Assembly: GCF_050320075.1 (NCBI RefSeq)
Contig: NZ_CP190018.1
From: Escherichia coli
GTDB lineage: Bacteria; Pseudomonadota; Gammaproteobacteria; Enterobacterales; Enterobacteriaceae
Length of the DNA: 64,000 nucleotides
Strand: one strand, 5' to 3'
The notes under the pieces were generated by a model that worked only from the letters and a program-made list of their open reading frames with translations, had not been told where the DNA came from and did not search any database. Shown here piece after piece: positions 69 to 50,740 of the stretch (within the stretch, counting starts at the first letter, position 1; every line of letters starts with the position of its first letter). A program made the position numbers and the translations under genes.

Positions 69-638
69 TTATTTTTCTTCACTACGAAGCAGTTCATGCT
101 GTACTTTTGTTAAACATTCGTAAGACTCATCTTTGTTCGGGAGATGTGCTGTCATTCGAGCATAAGTTGGCTTCTCATCTTTAAAATATTTAACCATGAT
201 TGAATTATCAAGGACTGCCAACAACTGAGCTGGATCACTGCTCTTTTTTTGATAGATACCCGCTCTTATATAACTTCTAAACCGATCGCCGAGAAACGCC
301 GTTTTTTCTGCTGTATTTAGCAACTCCTGCAACGTTCCTTTGGTTGCATGATTTTCATTAAGGCGTAGTGATCCGACGCGAATTAAGAGTCTCGCCCCGC
401 TTGGTGTGAATTTGTTATTTTTACATATACCAAGTTCTGTTTGCCAATAATACTCACCTATGTCCTCATTCTGATACCATCTCCACATGGTTTTATTATT
501 TAAGACAGGAAACGCGGAAAAAATAGTACCCTTAGTGAAAATGGTAAAGCAATCTTGATCTTTAGCTTGTGTTTCGCAATTAGCTATAACACCAAAACTA
601 ACGAATATCATCAGCAAAAAGAACAAAGCTCTTTTCAT
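69..638 (-). CDS. Putative Rhs immunity protein: small secreted protein immediately downstream of the Rhs C-terminal tip, 4-bp overlap with rhs stop
   Basis: ORF track 189 aa; N-terminal hydrophobic signal-like segment [21 protein letters not shown]; AT-rich like the Rhs tip; position typical of RhsI genes. No homolog recognised. Confidence 0.5.
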
Positions 639-3600
639 TTTCTTATTCCTCTCGATGTTCTCTGTTTCATTTTAGCTAAAATTTCACCCAAATCATCTAT
701 CCCTGCTGTTGCTGGCCCATCGGGTTTATTAATGTCTGGGAATAAATAGGGTTCTGCACAAGTATATCCTGGTGGTAATTGAGTTGTTGGCCAAGTTGTC
801 TGTGGCAGGTAATCACTTGCTGTCTTTGTCTCCATCCCTGGATACTGGGGATCATCCTGCGGCGTACAAGTCAGATTGGGTTTTACCCACTTCCTGCAAT
901 ACAGTGTGTAATCGTAAGGACTTAATGCTCTGAAGAATGTTTTGAAAACATTAGGCGCACTACTGGCCTGGTCAATAGGATATGGCAGTCTTAATTGTTT
1001 CGCTATGTCTGGCAACTTACTTGGATCGGGCGTAGGCGGTTTGTTGGGTCTCGCTCCATATCCGCCATTATTTAAGTGTCCATATTTAGATGCCAGTCCC
1101 ATTGAATCTATATACTGAACCGGATTTAACGGATACTGATAAAAATTCCATCCCCCCTTCAGTCCAATCGGATCCTGAGTGATATACCGCCCCTGCAGCG
1201 GGTCATAATAGCGGTGGCGGTTGTAATACAGGCCGGACTCCTCATCATACTGCTGACCCGGCAGGCGGATGAGCTGCTGCAGCTGGTGCGGGTTCTCTTC
1301 ATTCAGCAGGTTGCCCCATTCATCGTATTCTGCGCACCATTCTGTTGCCCCTTCCGTGCTGACAAGCGCCAGCGGCAGGCCGCGATGGTCGCAGTGGTAC
1401 AGGTGGATTTTTCGCGCCGGCGTGTACACCGGGTCCATCTGGTTTTGTATCTGCTCCACCGTCAGGCCGCACGATGCCAGCCAGCGGCGGCTTTCCTCAC
1501 TCACCCGGTCAGCCAGGATTTCACTTTCCAGCCGGTCGAGCATCTGCACCAGCACCGGCGGGAACACCACACTGCCACCGTCTTCGCCGCCGGACTGCTG
1601 AAGGGCATCCGCCAGGCTGCGGCGCTGCGTTTTCGCCAGCTCACCGGTGGCGGTTTCAACTCTGATGAGTGGCGTGAAGCTCCCCGGCTGATAAACCGTC
1701 TGGATGCGGGTTCTGTCGTTCTGTATCGTGGTCAGCCGGTCGCCGTCCCAGCCGTACCAGGTCACTTCCGGTTTCCGTGACAGCGACATCCAGCCCGTCA
1801 GGTCCCGTTCACGCCGCCATACCCGTTTTGCCACCCTGCGGCCCAGCGGGTCGTAAAGATAGCGACTTTCGACCAGCGGCTCTGCATATTGTGTCCGCGT
1901 GTAGTGCACCAGCCGGTGCCGGCTGTCGTAATGATACCGGTGAGTCCGCTCATCATCCGTGCGGATAACCCCTTCCGGGATGAGGTCGGTTTTCTCTGTC
2001 AGCCTGCCGTGACGGTCATACCGGTAAAGATAGTGCGCGTCACGGGCGATACGGTTATCCGGCCACATGCTGAGGGTGCTGTCCGGGTGCAGCTCCGGGT
2101 CGGGCAGGCGGTTGCCTGCCGGGTCCGTGGCATACGGGATGCGGATATCCAGGTTCGCTGCCGTGGTGTGGACGCCGGTCAGCCTGCCGGTGTCGCTGTA
2201 GCTGTAACTCCGGGTCTGGCGCGGGCTGCTGATGCGGATGAGTTCGCCGTTGTCGTTCCAGGTGTAATCGCGGTCATACTGCAGGCTGTTCAGGTGCTGG
2301 CTCTGTAACTGCCCGGCAGAGGTGTAAGCGGTGGTGAGTTCATAACGGCCGAAGCTGCGCAGCGTTTCCCGGTGCAGGCGGTCGCGGGTGTACTCCACCA
2401 GCGGTGTGTCGCCGAGTTTCATGCCTGACAGCCAGCCGCTGCCGTAGGTCAGCCATTCCACGGCGGGCAGGCTGTCCGGTATACAGCGGTTCGCCAGTCC
2501 CTGCGCGTTGTAAGCGTGTCTGGTTTCATGCTGCCAGAGCAGTGCTTCCGTCTGCGGGTGATGCACCGTCTGGCGCTCACCGGTCAGGCGGCCTTTCTCA
2601 TCATACCCGTAATGCACCGTCACCCGGTGGCCTTCGCTGAGATGGCTGATGCCTGTCAGCCAGCCGCGTTCGTCATACTGCCACTGCTCTGCCGGTTCAC
2701 CATTCACCGTTCGCTGTGTGATGCGGTCTGCTTCGTCATAGTGCCAGTGGGTGACCAGCCCCTCATCCTCGCTGCGGATAAGTTTGCCGGTCAGGTCGTG
2801 GTGATAACGCTGTGTGCGGCCGTCAAAGCCGGTTTCCTGTATCAGCCGGTCAAGTACATCGTAACGGAAGGTGGTGTGGCTGCCGTTTTCACTGGTCAGG
2901 CGGATGACCCGCCCGGCAGCATCGTATTCCATACTGCGCGTCAGACCGCCCTGCGTGGTACGAACGGGCTTTCCCCACGCATCGTACTGTGTCCCGTTTC
3001 TGCTGCCGTCCGGGGCAATGACGGCGGTCAGGTCACCGGCGGCGTTGTATTCATACCGCGTTTCATGGCCCTGCGTGTCTTTCACCGCAATTAACTGTCC
3101 ACGGCTGTCGTATGCGCGGTACTGACTCAGCCCTTCCTCGCGGTGCACCGCCGTCATCTGACCAAAACGGTCATGGTCATAACGGGTTACATAACCGGAA
3201 CAGTCAGTGACGGTCAGCAACTGACCGTAACGGCTCCATGTCATGGTTTTCCGGCTGCCGGTGGCATCCTCCGTTGCGCAGGGTAAGTCACTGTGTGGAT
3301 TATCATAACGGTAGCGGGTGATATCGCCGTTGTGTGCGGTTTCCTGAATCAGACGGCCGGATTCATCATATTCCCGGCGCAATTCCAGCCCGTCAGGCCC
3401 GGTGGCTGACGTTAACTGGCTGTGGTGGTTATAGTAAAATGCCGATGCCCTGCCATCCGGTGTGGTGATGCGCGTGATGAGTCCCGTCACCACATCCGGG
3501 CTGTACTCAGTCGTCCGGCCTGCGGCATCCGTCTGTGCCTTAAGCCTGCCCACCGCGTCAAACTGACTCTGCGTGACGCTGCCGTCCGCGTGTTCCTTTT

Positions 3601-4834
3601 TCACCACCCGCTTCAGCCCGCCTTCGCCCTGCGTGTGCAGCACTTCACGGCGGTCCAGACTGTCGGTGATGGTGATGCGGTCTTTCTCATACTGATACGT
3701 GTAGCTTAAGCCTGCCGGGTTTAGCTGCTCTGTCACCCGCCCGTCGCTGTCGTAACGGTAACGGATTTCTGGCCGGCCCGCGCGGTGGTGCGCCACCATC
3801 CGGCCCCGGTATTTATCATCGTAAGTAAAGCTGCGCACCTGTTTGCCACTGCGGTCATACACCGCCGCCAGTTCGCCGCGTGGCGTCCAGCCATAGCGCA
3901 CCAGCGGCGCGGCAGGTAAATTCTCCGGGTATTCCGGGTCGTGTGTCAGCCACACGGCAGACAGACGGATACCGTTGTCCCGGCCATATTCCGTGTAGTC
4001 CGGCAGGGTATCAGGAAAAGCGGACGGTTCCGTCCCGCCGGAAGAGGCCTGCTGCCGGGCCTCTTCTGCCCGCTGCGCCTGCGTGGTCAGTACCAGCCGG
4101 AAGTGACGCCCGGCACCATCCGTCACGCCGGTGATTTCGCCGCTGAATTCACCGCCAGCCTCACGGTGAAACGTCTGTGTGCGCCCGAAGCGGTCCACCA
4201 GCCCGGTCAGTACCCGGTACGGCGGCAGCGGCGCGGGCAGCACCTCATCCGCTTCCGGCACCCGCTCACACCAGCCGAGCAGCCACCACGGCCCCTGCGG
4301 ACTGTTTGTCGCCAGATAACGATGCGGACTTAAGCGGAGTTCTTCCGGCAGCGCCTGCCAGAGTGCGGTCAGCCGGTGACCTTCATCCAGTTTCAGGACA
4401 CCGCCACGCACCAGCCAGAGTGACTCGCTGCGGCTGTAACCGTCCTCACCGGGAAACAGGTGCTCAAAATACAGGCTCCTGCCGCCGTTATCACTGAGTA
4501 TCAGTGTGTTATCGCGCAGCTGTAGGCGGATATCCGCAGGCATTTTCCAGCCGGGGCCGAGGCTCCCCACCGGCGCGGGCGTTTTTGTCCGGTAACTGCT
4601 GTAGGTGCGGGAGAGGATGAACGGCAGCGGGCCGGGCAGGGCAAGGTCGGTTTCGCCGGGAAGGACCTTCGCGCCGAGCAGCGGATTGACCGGATGGCCG
4701 GACGTCACCCCGCCGGGGCACACCGAACAGGCCACGCCGGTGGGGGCACCAATACGTACCCCGGCAGAACCCTGAACAATGCTACCGCCATACTGCGTCA
4801 TGTCGCCCTGACGCGCCGCCGGTTTTCCGCTCAT
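635..4834 (-). CDS. rhsB: Rhs-family polymorphic toxin (PAAR-like N-terminus, YD-repeat core, variable C-terminal tip)
   Basis: 1399-aa ORF; N-terminal [26 protein letters not shown]-like motif; long GC-rich YD-repeat core; DPIGL core-end motif about 179 aa from C-terminus followed by AT-rich tip; locus next to nikR as for rhsB in K-12. Confidence 0.9.
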
Positions 4835-39929: not shown

Positions 39930-40433
39930 TTACTGATAGTGTTTTATGTTCAGATAATGCCCGATGACTTTGTCATGCAGCTCCACCGATTTTGAGAACG
40001 ACAGTGACTTCCGTCCCAGCCTTGCCAGATGTTGTCTCAGATTCAGGTTATGTCGCTCAATGCGCTGAGTGTAACGCTTGCTGATTACGTGCAGCTTTCC
40101 CTTCAGGCGGGATTCATACAGCGGCCAGCCATCCGTCATCCATACCACGACCTCAAAGGCCGACAGCAGGCTCAGAAGACGCTCCAGTGTGGCCAGAGTG
40201 CGTTCACCGAAGACGTGCGCCACAACCGTCCTCCGTATCCTGTCATACGCGTAAAACAGCCAGCGCTGACGTGATTTAGCACCGACGTAGCCCCACTGTT
40301 CGTCCATTTCAGCGCAGACAATCACATCACTGCCCGGCTGTATGCGCGAGGTTACCGACTGCGGCCTGAGTTTTTTAAGTGACGTAAAATCGTGTTGAGG
40401 CCAACGCCCATAATGCGGGCGGTTGCCCGGCAT
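39930..40433 (-). CDS. insB: IS1 transposase InsB (expressed as InsAB' by -1 frameshift)
   Basis: 167-aa ORF, recognised as the IS1 InsB frame from its sequence and position within the element. Confidence 0.9.
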
Positions 40434-40627
40434 CCAACACCATTCATGGCCATATCAATGATTTTCTGGTGTGTACCGGGTTGAGAAGCGGTGTAAGTGA
40501 ACTGCAGTTGCCATGTTTTACGGCAGTGAGAGCAGAGATAGCGCTGATGTCCGGCAGTACTTTTACCGTTACGCACCACGCCTTCAGTAGCTGAGCAGGA
40601 GGGACAACTGATGGAGATGGAAGCCAC
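40352..40627 (-). CDS. insA: IS1 protein InsA
   Basis: 91 aa, Cys-rich zinc-finger N-terminus ([14 protein letters not shown]...CSHCRKTW). Confidence 0.9.
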
Positions 40628-40655
40628 GGGAGCACCTCAAAAACACCATCATACA

Positions 40656-41114
40656 CTAAATCAGTAAGTTGGCACCATTACCGGTATTTGCGATAAGATG
40701 TTGACAGAGGATAAATTCATAACTAACAGTTAATGTTTCTGTATCCAGTTGATTTTCAATGATCTGATGATGAATAGCCGATAAAAAAGCGCCTCTTAGT
40801 TGTATATAATAATACTTTCCCCATCTACCAAATCTATTTATTCGATAGAAGTCAAATTCCATAAATAATTGTTCATTATTGTTAATGGAATTAATAAATA
40901 ATGGAGTGCTTTTATCAATTAATTTACAAAATGTTATACCATGAAACTGTGAACCAAGCCCCGTATTAGTAATACTATTTAAGAATGAGAATGTAAATAT
41001 TTCATCCTCATGCCCGCTCTGCCAGCGATTACCTGTAGACTCAGAAGTCCCACAACCTGCGGAGATGCTTCCTTGTTGTTCTCCCGTTACTGTCAGGTAA
41101 ACAATATTACTCAT
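40656..41114 (-). pseudogene. Hcp-domain gene fragment (yhhZ-like Hcp-effector N-terminus) truncated by IS1; last ~9 codons and the stop lie in the IS1 end
   Basis: 152-aa ORF with Hcp hallmark KLIDKSTPLF; ORF runs into the IS1 terminal repeat (40656-40682). Confidence 0.7.
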
Positions 41115-41960: not shown

Positions 41961-42050
41961 GCGATCAGGAAGACCCTCGCGGAGAACCTGAAAGCACGAC
42001 ATTGCTCACATTGCTTCCAGTATTACTTAGCCAGCCGGGTGCTGGCTTTT
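41961..42050 (+). ncRNA. ryhB: RyhB small RNA (Fur-repressed iron-sparing sRNA)
   Basis: gcgatcaggaagaccctcgcggagaacctgaaagcacgacattgctcacattgcttccagtattacttagccagccgggtgctggcttttttttt matches RyhB as I recall it, including terminator hairpin and T-run; between yhhY and yhhX as in K-12. Confidence 0.9.
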
Positions 42051-42172
42051 TTTTTGATCTTTCGTTTTCAATTTATCCACGGGAAGTGCTTGTGTTCGTT
42101 ATGCGCACTCCAGTAGGAACCACGTCCGCTTTGCGCTAAGGTGTAAATAATCACCTTAAAAAGGACGAAATC

Positions 42173-45916: not shown

Positions 45917-47257
45917 GTGACTACATTAACGCTTGTTTTAACAGCAGTAGGGTCTGTTTTACTGCTGCTGTTTTTAGTCATGAAGGCGCGTATGCACGCT
46001 TTCCTGGCTTTGATGGTGGTGTCCATGGGGGCTGGCCTTTTTTCCGGTATGCCGCTCGATAAAATCGCAGCGACGATGGAAAAAGGGATGGGAGGCACCC
46101 TCGGCTTCCTGGCGGTGGTTGTCGCCCTGGGAGCTATGTTTGGCAAGATCTTACATGAAACCGGCGCAGTCGATCAGATTGCCGTCAAAATGCTCAAATC
46201 CTTCGGTCACAGCCGCGCGCATTATGCCATCGGCCTTGCGGGGCTGGTCTGTGCGCTACCGCTGTTCTTTGAAGTGGCGATTGTTCTGCTGATTAGCGTT
46301 GCTTTCTCAATGGCGCGCCACACCGGTACGAACCTGGTGAAGCTGGTAATCCCATTATTCGCAGGCGTGGCGGCCGCGGCTGCGTTCCTGGTGCCTGGAC
46401 CAGCGCCAATGCTGCTGGCATCGCAGATGAATGCCGACTTTGGCTGGATGATCCTGATTGGCCTGTGTGCGGCAATTCCGGGAATGATTATTGCCGGGCC
46501 GCTGTGGGGTAATTTCATCAGCCGCTACGTGGAGCTGCATATTCCTGACGACATCAGCGAACCACATCTCGGCGAAGGCAAAATGCCATCTTTCGGATTC
46601 AGCCTGTCGCTGATCCTGTTGCCGCTGGTGCTGGTAGGGCTGAAAACCATTGCCGCGCGTTTTGTGCCAGAAGGCTCTACCGCTTACGAATGGTTCGAGT
46701 TTATTGGTCATCCGTTTACCGCGATTCTGGTTGCTTGTCTGGTGGCGATTTATGGCCTGGCAATGCGTCAGGGCATGCCAAAAGACAAAGTGATGGAGAT
46801 TTGCGGTCACGCGCTGCAACCGGCGGGGATCATTCTGCTGGTGATTGGTGCAGGCGGCGTGTTCAAACAGGTGCTGGTTGACTCTGGCGTAGGTCCGGCA
46901 CTGGGCGAAGCGTTAACCGGCATGGGCCTGCCGATTGCCATCACCTGCTTCGTGCTGGCAGCTGCAGTGCGCATCATTCAGGGTTCTGCCACCGTTGCCT
47001 GTTTAACGGCGGTGGGACTGGTGATGCCGGTTATTGAACAACTGAACTACTCCGGTGCGCAAATGGCGGCGCTGTCGATTTGTATCGCCGGTGGTTCGAT
47101 TGTTGTCAGCCACGTTAACGACGCCGGTTTCTGGTTGTTCGGTAAATTTACCGGCGCGACCGAAGCCGAAACGCTGAAAACCTGGACCATGATGGAAACC
47201 ATACTCGGCACTGTTGGTGCCATCGTTGGGATGATTGCGTTCCAGCTGTTGAGTTAA
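45917..47257 (+). CDS. gntU: Low-affinity gluconate transporter GntU (GntP family)
   Basis: 446-aa polytopic membrane protein. Confidence 0.9.
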   Translation: MTTLTLVLTAVGSVLLLLFLVMKARMHAFLALMVVSMGAGLFSGMPLDKIAATMEKGMGGTLGFLAVVVALGAMFGKILHETGAVDQIAVKMLKSFGHSRAHYAIGLAGLVCALPLFFEVAIVLLISVAFSMARHTGTNLVKLVIPLFAGVAAAAAFLVPGPAPMLLASQMNADFGWMILIGLCAAIPGMIIAGPLWGNFISRYVELHIPDDISEPHLGEGKMPSFGFSLSLILLPLVLVGLKTIAARFVPEGSTAYEWFEFIGHPFTAILVACLVAIYGLAMRQGMPKDKVMEICGHALQPAGIILLVIGAGGVFKQVLVDSGVGPALGEALTGMGLPIAITCFVLAAAVRIIQGSATVACLTAVGLVMPVIEQLNYSGAQMAALSICIAGGSIVVSHVNDAGFWLFGKFTGATEAETLKTWTMMETILGTVGAIVGMIAFQLLS

Positions 47258-47271
47258 TTACTGCGACAAAT

Positions 47272-47299
47272 TACTGCGAGCTTGCTCGCAGTAATTCAT
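47272..47299 (+). terminator. Palindromic hairpin downstream of gntU (probable terminator)
   Basis: Perfect inverted repeat aattactgcgagc tt gctcgcagtaatt; no strong T-run. Confidence 0.45.
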
Positions 47300-47396
47300 T
47301 TCTCTTATCTCCTCTCTTCATCTTTTTGATCTCTCTCGCAAATTTACCTGCTAATAATCCGTTCTAATCACTGCCTAAAGATCGCAGGAGATAAAG

Positions 47397-49493
47397 ATGG
47401 AAAAGCACGGAGCTGAATTGCTTTTACAGCGGATGTTAGGAAATACCACCGCTACTTTCAGGGAAGGGCAATGGGAAGCCATAGATGCAGTGGTTAATCA
47501 GCGGCGAAAACTGCTGGTTGTACAGCGCACCGGCTGGGGGAAAAGTGCCGTGTACTTCATCGCCAGTAAAATCTTCCGCGATCGCGGCGCTGGCCCGACA
47601 ATTATCATCTCTCCTTTGCTTGCCCTGATGCGTAACCAGGTTGCCGCCGCTGAACGGTTAGGTATTACGGCTGAAACGTTGAATTCTACAAACAGGGAAG
47701 AATGGCAGCGCATTAGCGATAAGTTGCTGCAAGGTGAGGTCGATTGCTTGCTGGTTTCCCCGGAACGTTTGGCAAACCAGGACTTTATCGAAACGGTTTT
47801 ATATCCTATAGCCGATCGTATTGGCTTGCTTGTGGTCGACGAGGCGCACTGCATCTCTGATTGGGGCCACGATTTTCGCCCGGATTACCGACGTATATTA
47901 GATATTTTGCGCCAACTGCCTGCGAATACCCCTGTTCTGGGTACAACCGCGACAGCGAATAACCGTGTTGTTGAGGATATCCGTCAGCAATTGGGTGACA
48001 TTGTGATTCAGCGTGGAACGCTGGCTCGCGAAAGTTTGGCGCTTGATGCCTTAGTCTTAGGAGAACAGTCATCCCGTCTGGCATGGTTAGCAACGGTTAT
48101 CCCTCAGTTTTCCAAATCGGGAATTGTTTATACCCTGACGACTCGCGATGCTGAACTTGTCGCCGAGTGGTTAAGGAAAAATGGTATCAGTGCATTTGCT
48201 TACTACAGCGGCGTGACTTGTGAAGGCGCGGAAGATTCTAATACTGCCAGGGAATATCTGGAGCAGGCACTGCTGGCAAATAAAATCAAAGTGCTGGTCG
48301 CGACGACGGCATTAGGTATGGGGTTTGATAAACCTGATTTAGGTTTCGTCATTCATTATCAGATGCCGGGGTCTATTGTCGGTTACTACCAACAGGTGGG
48401 GCGTGCCGGGCGTGCTATAGATTCCGCAGTTGGCATATTGCTTTGTGGTGGTGAAGACCGCGCTATTCATCAATTCTTCCGTGAAAGCGCCTTTCCTGCG
48501 GAGGCGCAAATTCATGAAATACTCAACGTACTTAGCGAGAATGACGGTCTTACCCTACGAGGCATTGAACAACGGACGAATCTTCGTTATGGGCAAATAG
48601 AAAAAGCACTGAAATTATTGGTAGCGGAAAATCCATCGCCTGTGGTGTATACCGAGAAATTATGGCGCAGAACTATCGTCAGTTTTTCTCCTGATCATGA
48701 ACGAATTAACCATTTGATGAATCAGAGAAAAAGTGAACTGGCAGACGTTGAAAGCTATATCACGACCAAGGAGTGCAAAATGCAATTTCTGCGCCGTGCA
48801 CTCGATGAGCCAAGTGCCGAACGTTGTGGTAAATGTAGCAGTTGTCTTCAGCATCCGTTATTGTCGCCCGACATTGATAGCGGCTTACTCCATGCGGCAA
48901 ATTTATTTATTAAACACGCTGACCTGCCGTTAAATCTCAATAAACAGGTGGCAGCTGGGGCTTTTACGCAATACGGATTTAAAGGGAACTTGCCTGCGGG
49001 TTTACAAGGATCTACGGGGCGAATCCTTTCTCGTTGGGGAGATTCCGGGTGGGGAAAGCAGGTAGCACAGGAGAAAAAAACGGGGCGCTTAAGTGATGAG
49101 CTGGTAGAAGCATGTGCGGAAATGGTTCGCCAACGCTGGAATCCGCATCCTGAACCAACCTGGGTATGCTGCGTTCCTTCATTAAGGCACCTCGACCTGG
49201 TTCCTGATTTTGCCCGGCGACTGGCGGCGAAACTTGGCTTACCTTTTATTGATGCCATTGAAAAAGTCGTGGACAATCCACCGCAGAAAATGCAGCAAAA
49301 CCGTTTTCACCAGTGTCAAAATCTCGACGGGGCGTTTGTGATTACCCCTCCTTTGATGCCAGGTCCGGCGTTGCTGGTTGACGATATCGTGGATTCTGCA
49401 TGGACGCTGACAGTTCTGACAGCACTGTTACGCCAGGCAGGTTGCCCGACGGTTTATCCTCTTGCCCTTGCTTCTACCTCGGTAAAAAATTGA
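47397..49493 (+). CDS. RecQ-family superfamily-2 helicase fused to a C-terminal ComF-type phosphoribosyltransferase-like domain (PsyrT/RqlH-like candidate toxin)
   Basis: 698 aa. RecQ motifs: FREGQWEAIDAV, Walker A TGWGKS, DEAH box VVDEAHCISDWGHDFRPDY, YYQQVGRAGR, Zn-binding CKMQFLRR...CGKCSSC. C-terminus: QNRFHQCQNLDGAF...ALLVDDIVDSAWTLT matching ComF/PRTase PRPP-loop pattern. Good RBS aggag 8 bp upstream. Confidence 0.8.
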   Translation: MEKHGAELLLQRMLGNTTATFREGQWEAIDAVVNQRRKLLVVQRTGWGKSAVYFIASKIFRDRGAGPTIIISPLLALMRNQVAAAERLGITAETLNSTNREEWQRISDKLLQGEVDCLLVSPERLANQDFIETVLYPIADRIGLLVVDEAHCISDWGHDFRPDYRRILDILRQLPANTPVLGTTATANNRVVEDIRQQLGDIVIQRGTLARESLALDALVLGEQSSRLAWLATVIPQFSKSGIVYTLTTRDAELVAEWLRKNGISAFAYYSGVTCEGAEDSNTAREYLEQALLANKIKVLVATTALGMGFDKPDLGFVIHYQMPGSIVGYYQQVGRAGRAIDSAVGILLCGGEDRAIHQFFRESAFPAEAQIHEILNVLSENDGLTLRGIEQRTNLRYGQIEKALKLLVAENPSPVVYTEKLWRRTIVSFSPDHERINHLMNQRKSELADVESYITTKECKMQFLRRALDEPSAERCGKCSSCLQHPLLSPDIDSGLLHAANLFIKHADLPLNLNKQVAAGAFTQYGFKGNLPAGLQGSTGRILSRWGDSGWGKQVAQEKKTGRLSDELVEACAEMVRQRWNPHPEPTWVCCVPSLRHLDLVPDFARRLAAKLGLPFIDAIEKVVDNPPQKMQQNRFHQCQNLDGAFVITPPLMPGPALLVDDIVDSAWTLTVLTALLRQAGCPTVYPLALASTSVKN

Positions 49494-50695
49494 TGAATCT
49501 TTCAGCCAATGCACAAGCGACTCTCCTGCTAACCAGCGATTTTTCTCGCGCGGCGGCGAGTGAGTATAAACCTCTTAGTAATAGTGAATGGGGGAAGTTT
49601 GCATTATGGCTGAAGCACCAACGTATCAGTCCCGCCGATCTTCTGGTGCCGCAACCGCAAGAGAAACTTACAGGCTGGAGCGATCCGCGTATTTCTCAGG
49701 AGCGTATTCTTGGCTTGCTGGCGCGTGGTCATAGTCTGGCGTTGGCGGTAGATAAGTGGCAACGCGCCGGTTTATGGATCTTAACCCGCGGAGATGCCGA
49801 TTATCCCGTTCGCTTGAAAAACCGATTGCGAACGGATGCACCTCCCGTTTTATTTGGCTGCGGGAATAAAGCATTACTGCAAGCGGAAGGTATGGCGATT
49901 GTTGGCTCGCGAGATGCTCCGACTGCCGATTTGCGCTATACCCAACAACTGGCAGCGAAACTGGCCCAACAGGGGATTTGCGTTATCTCTGGTGGTGCGC
50001 GAGGTATTGATGAATGTGCAATAGCGTCGGCGCTGGAGGCCGGAGGAACTGCCGTTGGCGTATTAGCTGATAGCTTGTTAAAAACGAGCACGTTAGTGAA
50101 ATGGCGTGAAGGGCTTATAGCAGGCAACCTGGTGTTGATTTCACCGTTTTACCCAGAGGTACGTTTCACCGTCGGCAATGCGATGGCGCGGAATAAATAT
50201 ATTTATTGCCTTGCTGAAAGCGCAATGGTTGTACGTGCGGGAATGACCGGTGGAACGATAACCGGAGCGATGGAGGCGTTAAAACATCAGTGGCTGCCTG
50301 TTCTGGTTAAACCAAATCAGGATGTGCAATCAGCCAATTCACGATTAGTAGAAAATGGGGCGTCATGGAGTGCTGAACAGGCTGAGAATGTGACGATCAG
50401 ACTGCCAGACGTTCCTGGGCTGATGTATGACAGAGCACTCCGTAACGCTCAACCAGAATTGTTTTCGCTGCACGAAGATGACGCAAATTACGCAGTGATG
50501 CCCTCGCATACCCCTGTCGATTTTTATCAACTTTTTGTGGCGGAACTGGCGATCCTTGCAAAGGAATCGATAAGTATTGAAAGGCTGGCGTCTTGTACTG
50601 GTTTAACCATCGAACAAATTAGTATGTGGCTGAACCGCGCAGAAGAAGAGGGAAGGGTTATCCGATTGGGCGAAGGTCATTATCAGTTCAGGTAA
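49493..50695 (+). CDS. DprA (Smf)-like Rossmann-fold protein with C-terminal winged-helix (PsyrA/RqlI-like candidate antitoxin)
   Basis: 400 aa from the ATG overlapping the upstream stop (TGATG). DprA motifs: IVGSRDAP...ICVISGGARGIDECAIASALEAGGTAVGVLADSL...NAMARNKYIY...VVRAGMTGGT. Confidence 0.75.
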   Translation: MNLSANAQATLLLTSDFSRAAASEYKPLSNSEWGKFALWLKHQRISPADLLVPQPQEKLTGWSDPRISQERILGLLARGHSLALAVDKWQRAGLWILTRGDADYPVRLKNRLRTDAPPVLFGCGNKALLQAEGMAIVGSRDAPTADLRYTQQLAAKLAQQGICVISGGARGIDECAIASALEAGGTAVGVLADSLLKTSTLVKWREGLIAGNLVLISPFYPEVRFTVGNAMARNKYIYCLAESAMVVRAGMTGGTITGAMEALKHQWLPVLVKPNQDVQSANSRLVENGASWSAEQAENVTIRLPDVPGLMYDRALRNAQPELFSLHEDDANYAVMPSHTPVDFYQLFVAELAILAKESISIERLASCTGLTIEQISMWLNRAEEEGRVIRLGEGHYQFR

Positions 50696-50699
50696 TAAA

Positions 50700-50733
50700 A
50701 CAGGTGCCGCCTCTGGTTGTGTGCAGCACCTGT
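50700..50733. terminator. Hairpin between the DprA-like gene and yhgN (convergent), probable yhgN terminator
   Basis: acaggtgccgc...gcagcacctgt stem-loop; on the minus strand followed by a T/A-rich run. Confidence 0.5.
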
Positions 50734-50740
50734 TTGAACC

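Follow-up and report, generated by a model that had tools for sequence, protein, structure and literature searches.

The DNA analysed is a window of 64,000 nucleotides of Escherichia coli (contig NZ_CP190018.1). Between gntU and yhgN it contains a strain-variable segment, which extends from the gntU stop codon to the yhgN stop codon (47258..50740) and comprises 3483 bp, compared to 56 bp in K-12 MG1655. Homology to K-12 ends at these two stop codons, and the gene pair rqlHI stands in place of the 56 bp. The first gene, rqlH (psyrT; 47397..49493, + strand), is an uninterrupted open reading frame with an ATG start and a TGA stop; it codes for a protein of 698 residues, which unites a RecQ-like helicase and a ComF-like phosphoribosyltransferase (PRTase) domain and corresponds to the toxin. 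The second gene, rqlI (psyrA; 49493..50695, + strand), codes for a DprA-like antitoxin of 400 residues. The rqlI start (ATG) and the stop codon of rqlH overlap in the sequence ATGA. Directly 3' of gntU, a terminator scan and RNA folding revealed a terminator-like hairpin (47269..47296, + strand) with a 12-bp stem, a 4-nt loop and a T-rich tail (-16.6 kcal/mol, z = -5.4). RNA folding indicated another hairpin between the convergent genes rqlI and yhgN (50698..50735), with -18.7 kcal/mol (z = -3.2) for the + strand and -20.9 kcal/mol (z = -3.6) for the - strand. It is a probable bidirectional terminator of rqlI and yhgN. A sigma-70 scan from the gntU terminator to rqlH yielded no convincing promoter. 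Around 47258-50740, integrase or transposase genes were absent, and the search for flanking direct or inverted repeats gave short matches only.

The locus is very probably the chromosomal rqlH-rqlI operon of E. coli, that is, the two-gene toxin-antitoxin system and candidate anti-phage module PsyrTA; the equivalence of PsyrTA and RqlHI is documented (Millman et al. 2022, bioRxiv 10.1101/2022.05.11.491447). PsyrT is a standard PADLOC model. It matches residues 3-697 of RqlH with positions 5-687 of 689 (E=0, 1064 bits), and the PsyrA model matches the downstream product with 3.3e-200, positions 1-397 of 398 being aligned from the ATG at 49493. Membership in this family had been offered as a hypothesis by a sequence-only reading of the DNA, and these two whole-length matches support it. 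Compared to the ST131 (B2-lineage) ExPEC allele, 688 of the 698 residues of RqlH (99%) and 391 of the 400 residues of RqlI (98%) are identical; apart from a few conservative substitutions, there is no substantial difference. Genes, gene order and overlap are like those of RqlH-RqlI from the ExPEC strain F11 (PMC4670107; PsyrTA in Sberro 2013 and Millman 2022). Furthermore, the residues mutated in F11, namely K49, D148 and D663, are numbered identically here. Together with the ST131 allele, this numbering leads us to infer identity to the F11 proteins. The pair is already known; its architecture, its toxicity and its analogy to ComFA/ComFC/DprA have been published (2012, 2013, 2015, 2017, 2022). 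The helicase-PRTase fusion goes back to 2012, its toxicity and antitoxin followed in 2013 and 2015, and a connection with phage defence was made in 2022.

Several PADLOC models of DpdF, the helicase of the Dpd 7-deazaguanine DNA-modification/restriction cluster, also match RqlH, the best one with 1.2e-92; two short ones cover exclusively the C-terminal part (residues 625-698 with 7.8e-54 and 462-694 with 2.6e-18). The PsyrT score is far above these and covers the full length. Moreover, the NCBIfam DpdF model NF041063 gave 149 bits, compared to a cut-off of 550, and no other dpd gene lies nearby, the adjoining genes being gntU and yhgN. Because the NCBIfam cut-off was failed and a dpd cluster is absent, the assignment to DpdF was rejected and has a negligible probability.

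Residues 1-484 of RqlH are a RecQ catalytic core, and the RecQ-type motor is complete. Its SF2 helicase core (47397..48446, + strand) was delineated by means of Pfam, TIGR00614, a PDB sequence search and Foldseek. RecA-like lobe 1 (aa 1-207) contains Q25, K49 within GWGKS (residues 46-50), DEAH148-151 and TAT184-186, and lobe 2 (aa 214-350) contains QQVGRAGR332-339. K49 is invariant in 27/27 homologues. The Pfam matches are DEAD (4.9e-25) and Helicase_C (4.2e-13), and the score for NCBIfam recQ_fam TIGR00614 (252.8 bits) exceeds the cut-off of 219.8. In the PDB, the N-terminal part found RecQ-family cores only, with E. coli RecQ (1oyw_A) matching the core at 2.1e-53; no PsyrT/RqlH structure is deposited. 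The best Foldseek matches were RecQ catalytic cores as well (3.7e-30 to 6.8e-29). The predicted full-length model of RqlH has a pLDDT of 91.2 and a pTM of 0.88.

The helicase lobes are followed by an RqlH-specific linker (aa 354-425; 48456..48671, + strand), whose secondary structure in the full-length model comprises helices at 369-380, 387-393 and 398-410 and strands at 416-419 and 422-425. This predicted succession of helices and a beta-hairpin resembles a winged helix; Pfam MarR_2 matches residues 373-410 weakly (E=0.19). A linker of ~90 aa that has no counterpart in RecQ was described by Shuman's group (PMC3378886). The adjoining RecQ-type zinc module (aa 434-484; 48696..48848, + strand) was deduced from its cysteines, from Pfam RecQ_Zn_bind (E=0.0014) and from the alignment with RecQ. 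Cys460/477/480/483 are kept in 24/27 homologues; in the alignment with E. coli RecQ, they fall on CGNCDIC, the C-terminal portion of its Zn-binding segment. The full RecQ motif set with DEAH and zinc cysteines, as initially claimed, is thus found in K49, DEAH148, the four cysteines and the Pfam helicase domains.

Is RqlH then a second copy of the housekeeping RecQ? Its best match in sequence and fold is the RecQ catalytic core, and E. coli RecQ (PDB 1OYW) shares the lobes, the zinc module and the motif set, with ~30% identity over ~488 aligned positions. However, a Pfam search detected no HRDC domain in RqlH, whose PRTase domain takes the place of HRDC and whose ~90-aa linker is inserted ahead of the zinc module. 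In addition, both RecQ equivalogs were failed (TIGR01389: 296.3 bits, cut-off 640.2; NF008279: 225.5 bits, cut-off 1015). Owing to these scores and the different domain content, this interpretation was rejected as well, and its probability is close to zero. RqlH from M. smegmatis (Ordonez, Unciuleac & Shuman 2012, PMC3378886) shows the same arrangement: the RecQ-like ATPase is followed by a linker of ~90 aa, a tetracysteine zinc module and a ComF-like PRTase, and HRDC is absent. It is a distant orthologue of similar length (691 aa, compared to 698 aa here), which was studied as a stand-alone helicase.

The C-terminal part of RqlH (aa 495-698; 48879..49490, + strand) is a ComF-like type I PRTase domain, to which the genotoxicity of the protein has been attributed. 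Within LLVDDIVDSAWTLT, QNRFHQ begins at residue 634 and DIVD at residue 663. Based on the single sequence, the PRTase signal is weak: Pfam Pribosyltran gave E=0.0084, and a PDB sequence search with this domain alone found nothing significant (best match E=0.22). At the level of family and fold, the assignment is solid. Pribosyltran is matched at E<=1e-3 by 27/45 family members, the family profile retrieved exclusively PRPP synthetases and PRTases from the PDB down to 1e-6, and AlphaFold2 modelled residues 495-698 with a pLDDT of 96.2 and a pTM of 0.92. The sequence-only reading had proposed a ComF/PRTase C-terminus of ~150 aa and had named beforehand this fold as the point on which it could be refuted. 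The fold was detected by both the family profile and the structure model; the domain is larger than proposed (~200 aa).

The PRPP-binding loop ALLVDDIVDSAWTLT (aa 658-672; 49368..49412, + strand) was located by means of family alignments and an alignment with PRPP synthetase. D662-D663 form its acidic pair and S667-T670 its 5'-phosphate loop. In sets of 45 and 27 homologues, D662, D663 and S667 never vary, and W669 and T670 hardly do; position 668 is occupied by G, R or A, and the family loop is therefore D-S-[G/R/A]-W-T. In B. subtilis PRPP synthetase, a bona fide enzyme, DDIIDTAGT aligns at the position of this loop. Outside the loop, Q630, N635, N642 and P594-S595 are invariant or nearly so. 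The RqlH family thus keeps its PRPP pocket unchanged, and DSAWT, judged by these alignments, represents the PRPP loop with conservative changes and is not degenerate. The initial view that the canonical loop is "replaced" by DSAWT has to be corrected in this sense. Likewise, the hint at a non-catalytic PRTase finds no support in the sequence, because D662, D663 and S667 are invariant, DSAWT is a family-wide feature, and the loop can be aligned with that of PRPP synthetase.

In structure, the C-terminal domain has its nearest neighbour in ComFC, ahead of ShosT and the metabolic PRTases. It resembles the fold of ComFC (H. pylori ComF, PDB 7P0H) at a sequence identity of ~12%. For the ComF protein YhgH/GntX of E. 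coli, hhalign gave a probability of 94.8%, with 22% identity over the hhalign match and 25% over a BLASTP match of 76 residues. Since the similarity to YhgH begins only at about residue 540, a counterpart of the N-terminal region of ComF was not identified. The domain resembles ComFC and is not a ComFC orthologue. ComFC is a stand-alone protein of ~200-250 aa, whereas the domain studied here is part of a 698-aa helicase, which is of the RecQ and not of the ComFA type. The ComF machinery acts in DNA uptake; for RqlH, no role in transformation is known. The parallel between a set of helicase, ComF-like PRTase and a protein like DprA on the one hand and ComFA/ComFC/DprA on the other, which the first inspection of the sequence had pointed out, does exist and had been drawn in the literature (PMC4670107, PMC5512222).

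For the partner RqlI, RefSeq lists a longer protein of 431 aa, with a start equivalent to 49400. The length of 400 aa given in PMC4670107 agrees with the start at 49493. RqlI contains a DprA-type Rossmann (SLOG) domain with SGGARGID (aa 89-292; 49757..50368, + strand), which was assigned by Pfam (DNA_processg_A 1.5e-49, LDcluster4 (SLOG) 4e-11). The scores are below the DprA equivalog cut-offs (TIGR00732: 101.8 bits, cut-off 191.15; NF008007: 79.9 bits, cut-off 495). RqlI thus has the DprA fold, and the RefSeq label "DNA-processing protein DprA" overstates the match. The PADLOC model of ShosA matched with 6.7e-27, compared to 3.3e-200 for PsyrA, and no ShosT model was among the best 25 of the 39 PADLOC matches to RqlH.

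ShosTA is nevertheless similar in several respects. Its toxin relies on a PRPP-binding PRTase domain, and the exchange D331A/D332A removes ShosT toxicity; its antitoxin is DprA-like; and the phenotype comprises DNA damage and filamentation. According to the papers on ShosTA, ShosT must bind PRPP in order to be toxic, and ShosA binds ssDNA and RecA; structures are available for ShosT (PDB 8ZVB/8ZVC) and ShosA (8ZVA). The two systems differ in that ShosT joins the PRTase to a pyrophosphatase domain and RqlH joins it to a RecQ core, and in that ShosTA was characterized as a type IV toxin-antitoxin system, whereas RqlI binds RqlH. The earlier distinction between a helicase toxin in PsyrTA and a PRTase toxin with a DprA-like antitoxin in ShosTA drew the division too sharply: PsyrT itself bears a PRTase domain, and PsyrA itself is DprA-like.

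The function of the pair has been studied with the F11 proteins (PMC4670107). RqlH alone induces the SOS response and filamentation and raises the mutation rate. Its toxicity requires the PRTase domain and the PRPP-loop aspartate D663, and each of the replacements D663A and DIVD663EVME removes it. The PRTase domain by itself is harmless, and the ATPase-dead variants K49A and D148A are still harmful. RqlI binds and neutralizes RqlH; an rqlI mutant is less fit in animal infection models, and deletion of rqlH rescues it. Given the 99% and 98% likeness to the ST131 alleles and the F11 data, toxicity and neutralization can be expected for the present allele. M. smegmatis RqlH was characterized as a 3'-to-5' ssDNA translocase and helicase (PMC3378886). 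Millman et al. 2022 (10.1101/2022.05.11.491447) count PsyrTA among the systems with a role in phage resistance and report that the transformation of a psyrA deletion mutant failed. For PsyrTA of E. coli NILS69, phage protection was detected neither in the native host nor in K-12; a growth defect was the only effect. A literature search from 2022 onwards found no paper on the mechanism of PsyrTA, only ShosTA studies and surveys.

A mechanism can be proposed in which the helicase body would position the active site of the PRTase at ssDNA. Using PRPP, the domain might there modify a base or nucleotide that belongs to the DNA or is close to it, or it might perturb the nucleotide supply locally, and lesions would result. 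RqlI would block this damage by direct binding and may, via its DprA-type ssDNA-binding fold, also assist repair, as ShosA does via RecA. During phage infection, the balance would shift to RqlH, which would then damage replicating DNA. In a more specific version, which we regard as rather unlikely, the tethered PRTase transfers the phosphoribose of PRPP onto a base of the ssDNA exposed by the motor. The product would be a new type of lesion, whose formation the partner with the DprA/SLOG fold would block or whose reversal it would support. A DNA-phosphoribosylation model was outlined by Russell & Mulvey 2015 (PMC4670107), and the logic of such a pair of writer and restrainer acting on DNA would be comparable to that of DarT-DarG.

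Alternatively, in the sense of the non-catalytic PRTase hinted at by the sequence-only reading, the domain would transfer nothing and would serve as a sensor or clamp for PRPP, a nucleotide or ssDNA, toxicity arising from a ligand-bound helicase that stalls or misbehaves on DNA. The literature reports no transferase product or acceptor for RqlH/PsyrT or ShosT, nor for retron effectors of the PRTase class, and no catalytic product is known for ComFC. ShosT binds PRPP, yet none of the purines tested, and a role as PRPP sensor has been proposed for it. The harmlessness of the isolated PRTase domain and the remaining toxicity of ATPase-dead RqlH also fit a sensor or clamp. The effect of D663A does not discriminate between the two possibilities, because ligand binding would be lost along with catalysis. 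On the other hand, the DD, the S and, nearly so, the T of the PRPP loop are invariant among homologues that are only ~40-50% identical, and DSAWT is not a degenerate loop. Together with the (near-)invariance of Q630, N635, N642 and P594-S595, this demonstrates a strong constraint on a complete active-site-like pocket. In sum, we consider a non-transferase domain possible, albeit not the probable solution.

With respect to distribution, rqlHI occupies the gntU/yhgN site in 1641/5426 complete E. coli genomes (~30%), including ST131; in the remaining genomes, as sampled, K-12 among them, the two flanking genes alone are present at this site. The distribution of the RqlHI family is already in print. 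Among E. coli defence systems, a chromosome-fixed locus without mobile-element features is unusual (PMC10121019). In three of three distant relatives, whose rqlH homologues are 34-53% identical to RqlH, a DprA-like gene lies directly 3' of the homologue, and one of these pairs adjoins AbiEii. Among strains with at least one of the two genes, 55% possess RqlH and lack RqlI (Russell & Mulvey 2015, PMC4670107), and the helicase is therefore neither always toxic nor always paired.

The single chromosomal site without mobility genes and the frequency of unpaired RqlH would also agree with a system whose main task is genome maintenance or DNA processing and not phage defence or addiction. RqlH would then be a helicase of repair and recombination, the ComFC-like domain would handle ssDNA, RqlI would load RecA like DprA, and toxicity would be the by-product of an imbalance. 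In line with this, M. smegmatis lacks RecQ and its RqlH behaves as an ordinary 3'-to-5' helicase; ComFC, the closest structural neighbour, is part of the DNA-uptake machinery; mutation of rqlI lowers fitness in animal infection models; and for E. coli PsyrTA, protection from phages was detected neither in the native host nor in K-12. However, RqlH alone is genotoxic and is relieved by direct binding of RqlI, and for the loss of rqlH in E. coli no repair phenotype has been reported; the deletion simply rescues the rqlI mutant (PMC4670107). The reported role of PsyrTA in phage resistance, the failure to transform the psyrA deletion mutant and the relative adjoining AbiEii likewise argue against a maintenance function, which we judge to be improbable.

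As a discovery, the rqlHI locus adds nothing beyond the published record. About 30% of the complete genomes carry the E. coli allele of what we take to be a toxin-antitoxin module, yet the sole test in a native host that is found in the literature showed no protection against phages. Two results are useful, if modestly so: the structural closeness of the C-terminal domain to ComFC and the invariance of the PRPP pocket. With ComFC as the nearest neighbour of this domain and an invariant pocket, the work on ComFC, RqlH and ShosT should therefore be read jointly.

The gene rqlH (47397..49493, plus strand) is an uninterrupted reading frame with an ATG start and a TGA stop, and codes for 698 residues. 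All RecQ motifs quoted in the sequence-only reading were located in it, namely GWGKS (residues 46-50), DEAH (at 148) and the zinc cysteines (460, 477, 480 and 483), as were the C-terminal strings QNRFHQ (at 634) and DIVD (at 663, within LLVDDIVDSAWTLT). The cysteine stretch aligns with the CGNCDIC part of the zinc-binding segment of E. coli RecQ. In Pfam searches, the matches to DEAD (4.9e-25) and Helicase_C (4.2e-13) were strong, and those to RecQ_Zn_bind (0.0014) and Pribosyltran (0.0084) were weaker. NCBIfam TIGR00614 places RqlH in the RecQ family (252.8 bits, cut-off 219.8). An identity as canonical RecQ was rejected, as RqlH scores far under the curated equivalog cut-offs.

The full-length model of RqlH is confident (pLDDT 91.2, pTM 0.88), and in Foldseek it is closest to the catalytic cores of RecQ (4tmu, 1oyw; 3.7e-30 to 6.8e-29, approximately 485-488 aligned columns). 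It comprises RecA-like lobes 1 (residues 1-207) and 2 (residues 214-350), a linker (residues 354-425; 48456-48671), a long helix with the zinc module (residues 434-484), and a ComF-like PRTase domain (residues 495-698). This domain plan is that of M. smegmatis RqlH as described by Shuman's group in 2012 (PMC3378886). Between the ATPase core and the zinc module, the linker particular to RqlH is confidently predicted to be helix-rich and to end in a beta-hairpin; it appears winged-helix-like and has a weak MarR_2 match. No description of its fold was found in the publications consulted.

The PADLOC PsyrT model matches RqlH end to end (E=0, 1064 bits; residues 3-697 versus model positions 5-687 of 689), and the downstream frame is an end-to-end match of PsyrA (3.3e-200). 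The membership in the PsyrT/RqlH family, which had been proposed as a hypothesis, is thereby supported. According to Millman et al. (bioRxiv 10.1101/2022.05.11.491447), PsyrTA and RqlHI are one system. RqlI (49493..50695, plus strand; 400 residues) starts at an ATG overlapping the rqlH stop codon (ATGA) and possesses a DprA-type Rossmann domain (Pfam DNA_processg_A, 1.5e-49; SLOG LDcluster4, 4e-11), scoring under the DprA equivalog cut-offs. RqlH and RqlI are identical to the ST131 alleles in 688 of 698 and 391 of 400 residues, respectively. The locus is the RqlHI/PsyrTA system already in print, and its allele shares 99% identity with that of ST131 ExPEC.

In RefSeq, the DprA-like gene codes for 431 residues, with a start equivalent to 49400 and a 94-nt overlap with rqlH (49400-49493). 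The alignment to the PsyrA profile begins with the ATG at 49493, giving the 400-residue RqlI of the 2015 paper with its ATGA stop/start overlap; the start in RefSeq probably lies too far upstream, and the product name "DprA" overstates a sub-threshold match. DpdF was likewise considered for RqlH and rejected, since the curated cut-off failed and the gene context is against it. Two PADLOC models labelled DpdF, PDLC02869 and PDLC02866, match RqlH only in the ComF-like PRTase region (residues 625-698, 7.8e-54, and 462-694, 2.6e-18). Some of the models named "DpdF" may thus contain pieces of RqlH-like proteins, and annotation with them could give such genes the wrong name.

Taken from the RqlH sequence alone, the PRTase call is weak (the Pribosyltran value; best PDB sequence match E=0.22), and it was therefore tested at the level of family and fold. 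At E<=1e-3, residues 495-698 have 1639 relatives in a set of 1.84 billion cluster representatives, and 27 of the 45 aligned members of the domain family match Pribosyltran at the same threshold. When the family profile was compared with the PDB, every match down to E=0.03 was a PRPP synthetase or a PRTase (best 1e-6), aligned on the PRPP loop. The confident AlphaFold2 model of the domain (pLDDT 96.2, pTM 0.92) retrieved PRTase-fold proteins only in Foldseek, H. pylori ComF giving the widest coverage of the model. The family profile also matches the E. coli ComF homologue YhgH/GntX (hhalign 94.8%, 5e-8; BLASTP 8e-5). On this evidence the ComF/PRTase fold postulated for the C-terminus holds, and the refuting outcome named in the sequence-only reading, absence of such a fold, was not observed.

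The conservation of the PRPP loop was assessed in 27 full-length homologues and 45 C-terminal domains. No substitution occurs at D662, D663 or S667, and hardly any at W669 or T670; G, R or A occupies position 668. Q630 and N642 likewise never vary, and P594, S595 and N635 vary little or not at all. The aligned position in B. subtilis PRPP synthetase reads DDIIDTAGT. Due to this family-wide conservation and the synthetase motif, DSAWT, previously taken as a replacement of the canonical loop, is on sequence grounds a conservative form of it and does not amount to its loss. Residue numbering is the same as in the characterized RqlH of E. coli F11, whose toxicity requires the PRTase domain and D663 and is abolished by D663A and by DIVD663EVME (PMC4670107). 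Conservation and the F11 mutants show that the PRPP-loop pocket of the putative transferase domain is constrained and functional. That the domain is a non-catalytic sensor is a real possibility, though less likely than not; this would bear on the chemical step only and is compatible with the identity as RqlHI.

The pair is flanked by gntR-gntK-gntU on the left and by yhgN (minus strand), asd and glgB on the right. The stop codons of gntU and yhgN are separated by 3483 bp in the window versus 56 bp in K-12 MG1655, and homology to K-12 breaks at both stop codons. Hairpins lie directly 3' of gntU (47269-47296) and between rqlI and yhgN (50698-50735). A search around the segment for mobility genes and meaningful flanking repeats found none. 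A 16-nt stretch in gntU, GTTCAAACAGGTGCTG (46861-46876), has an exact reverse complement at 50724-50739, which makes up the right arm of the rqlHI-terminal hairpin; 100 shuffles gave 0 such matches. An exact second copy is absent from the ST131 allele. The repeat may be a vestige of the segment's origin.

Of 5426 complete E. coli genomes, 1641 carry the pair together with both flanks, in every case on the chromosome; those sampled from the remainder, K-12 included, contain the two flanking genes only. A DprA-like gene directly follows the RqlH homologue in all three distant homologues (34-53% identity). In one of these, a metagenomic relative (locus L007, 1189-3040), the RqlH-like/DprA-like pair adjoins an AbiEii-family gene and an unannotated gene for a 323-residue partner, so that outside E. 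coli the family has a context resembling a defence island.

Elsewhere in the window, the RyhB small RNA (41990-42054, plus strand; Rfam RF00057, 83.1 bits, full length) lies at its expected place beside yhhX and yhhY. The RHS region (69-4834, minus strand), at an AT-rich end of the window (GC 0.39), contains a frame of 1399 residues for an RHS core protein (635-4834). Neither its last approximately 150 residues, beyond the RHS core motif, matched an NCBIfam family, nor did the overlapping 189-residue frame that follows (69-638, minus strand) match a family. Rhs toxin tips and their immunity genes are typically arranged in this way, and this region may encode such a pair. At 39930-41114 (minus strand), an IS1-family transposase frame (39930-40433) adjoins a 152-residue Hcp1/TssD-family frame (40656-41114). 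The latter gene appears to be truncated by IS1, because its tssD/yhhZ counterpart in another strain has 1179 bp.

RqlH is carried by non-K-12 E. coli strains, and the C-terminal domain of the M. smegmatis enzyme is dispensable for its 3'-to-5' ssDNA translocase and helicase activities (PMC3378886). In F11, RqlH without RqlI leads to SOS induction, filamentation and mutagenesis; the PRTase domain by itself is harmless, the K49A and D148A mutants are still harmful, and RqlI co-precipitates with RqlH (PMC4670107). PsyrTA is listed among phage-resistance systems by Millman et al., who also found that a psyrA deletion mutant is not transformable (bioRxiv 10.1101/2022.05.11.491447). PsyrTA of E. coli NILS69 protected neither its native host nor K-12 against the phages tested, a growth defect being its only effect. 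This negative native-host test, the fixed, non-mobile locus and the many RqlH-only genomes speak for a role of rqlHI in genome maintenance, which we nevertheless consider improbable. In the related ShosTA system, the toxicity of ShosT requires PRPP binding, ShosA binds ssDNA and RecA, and an acceptor for ShosT was not found in published work.

It has been shown that RqlH combines a RecQ-type motor with PRTase-dependent toxicity that damages DNA, and that the DprA-like partner binds and neutralizes it. The motor would deliver the PRTase pocket to ssDNA, where a PRPP-dependent reaction or PRPP-dependent binding might create lesions. RqlI would mask the toxin and may aid repair of the damage, and infection might tip the balance towards RqlH. 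The observation of the sequence-only reading is confirmed and its interpretation supported, and the finding is already known.
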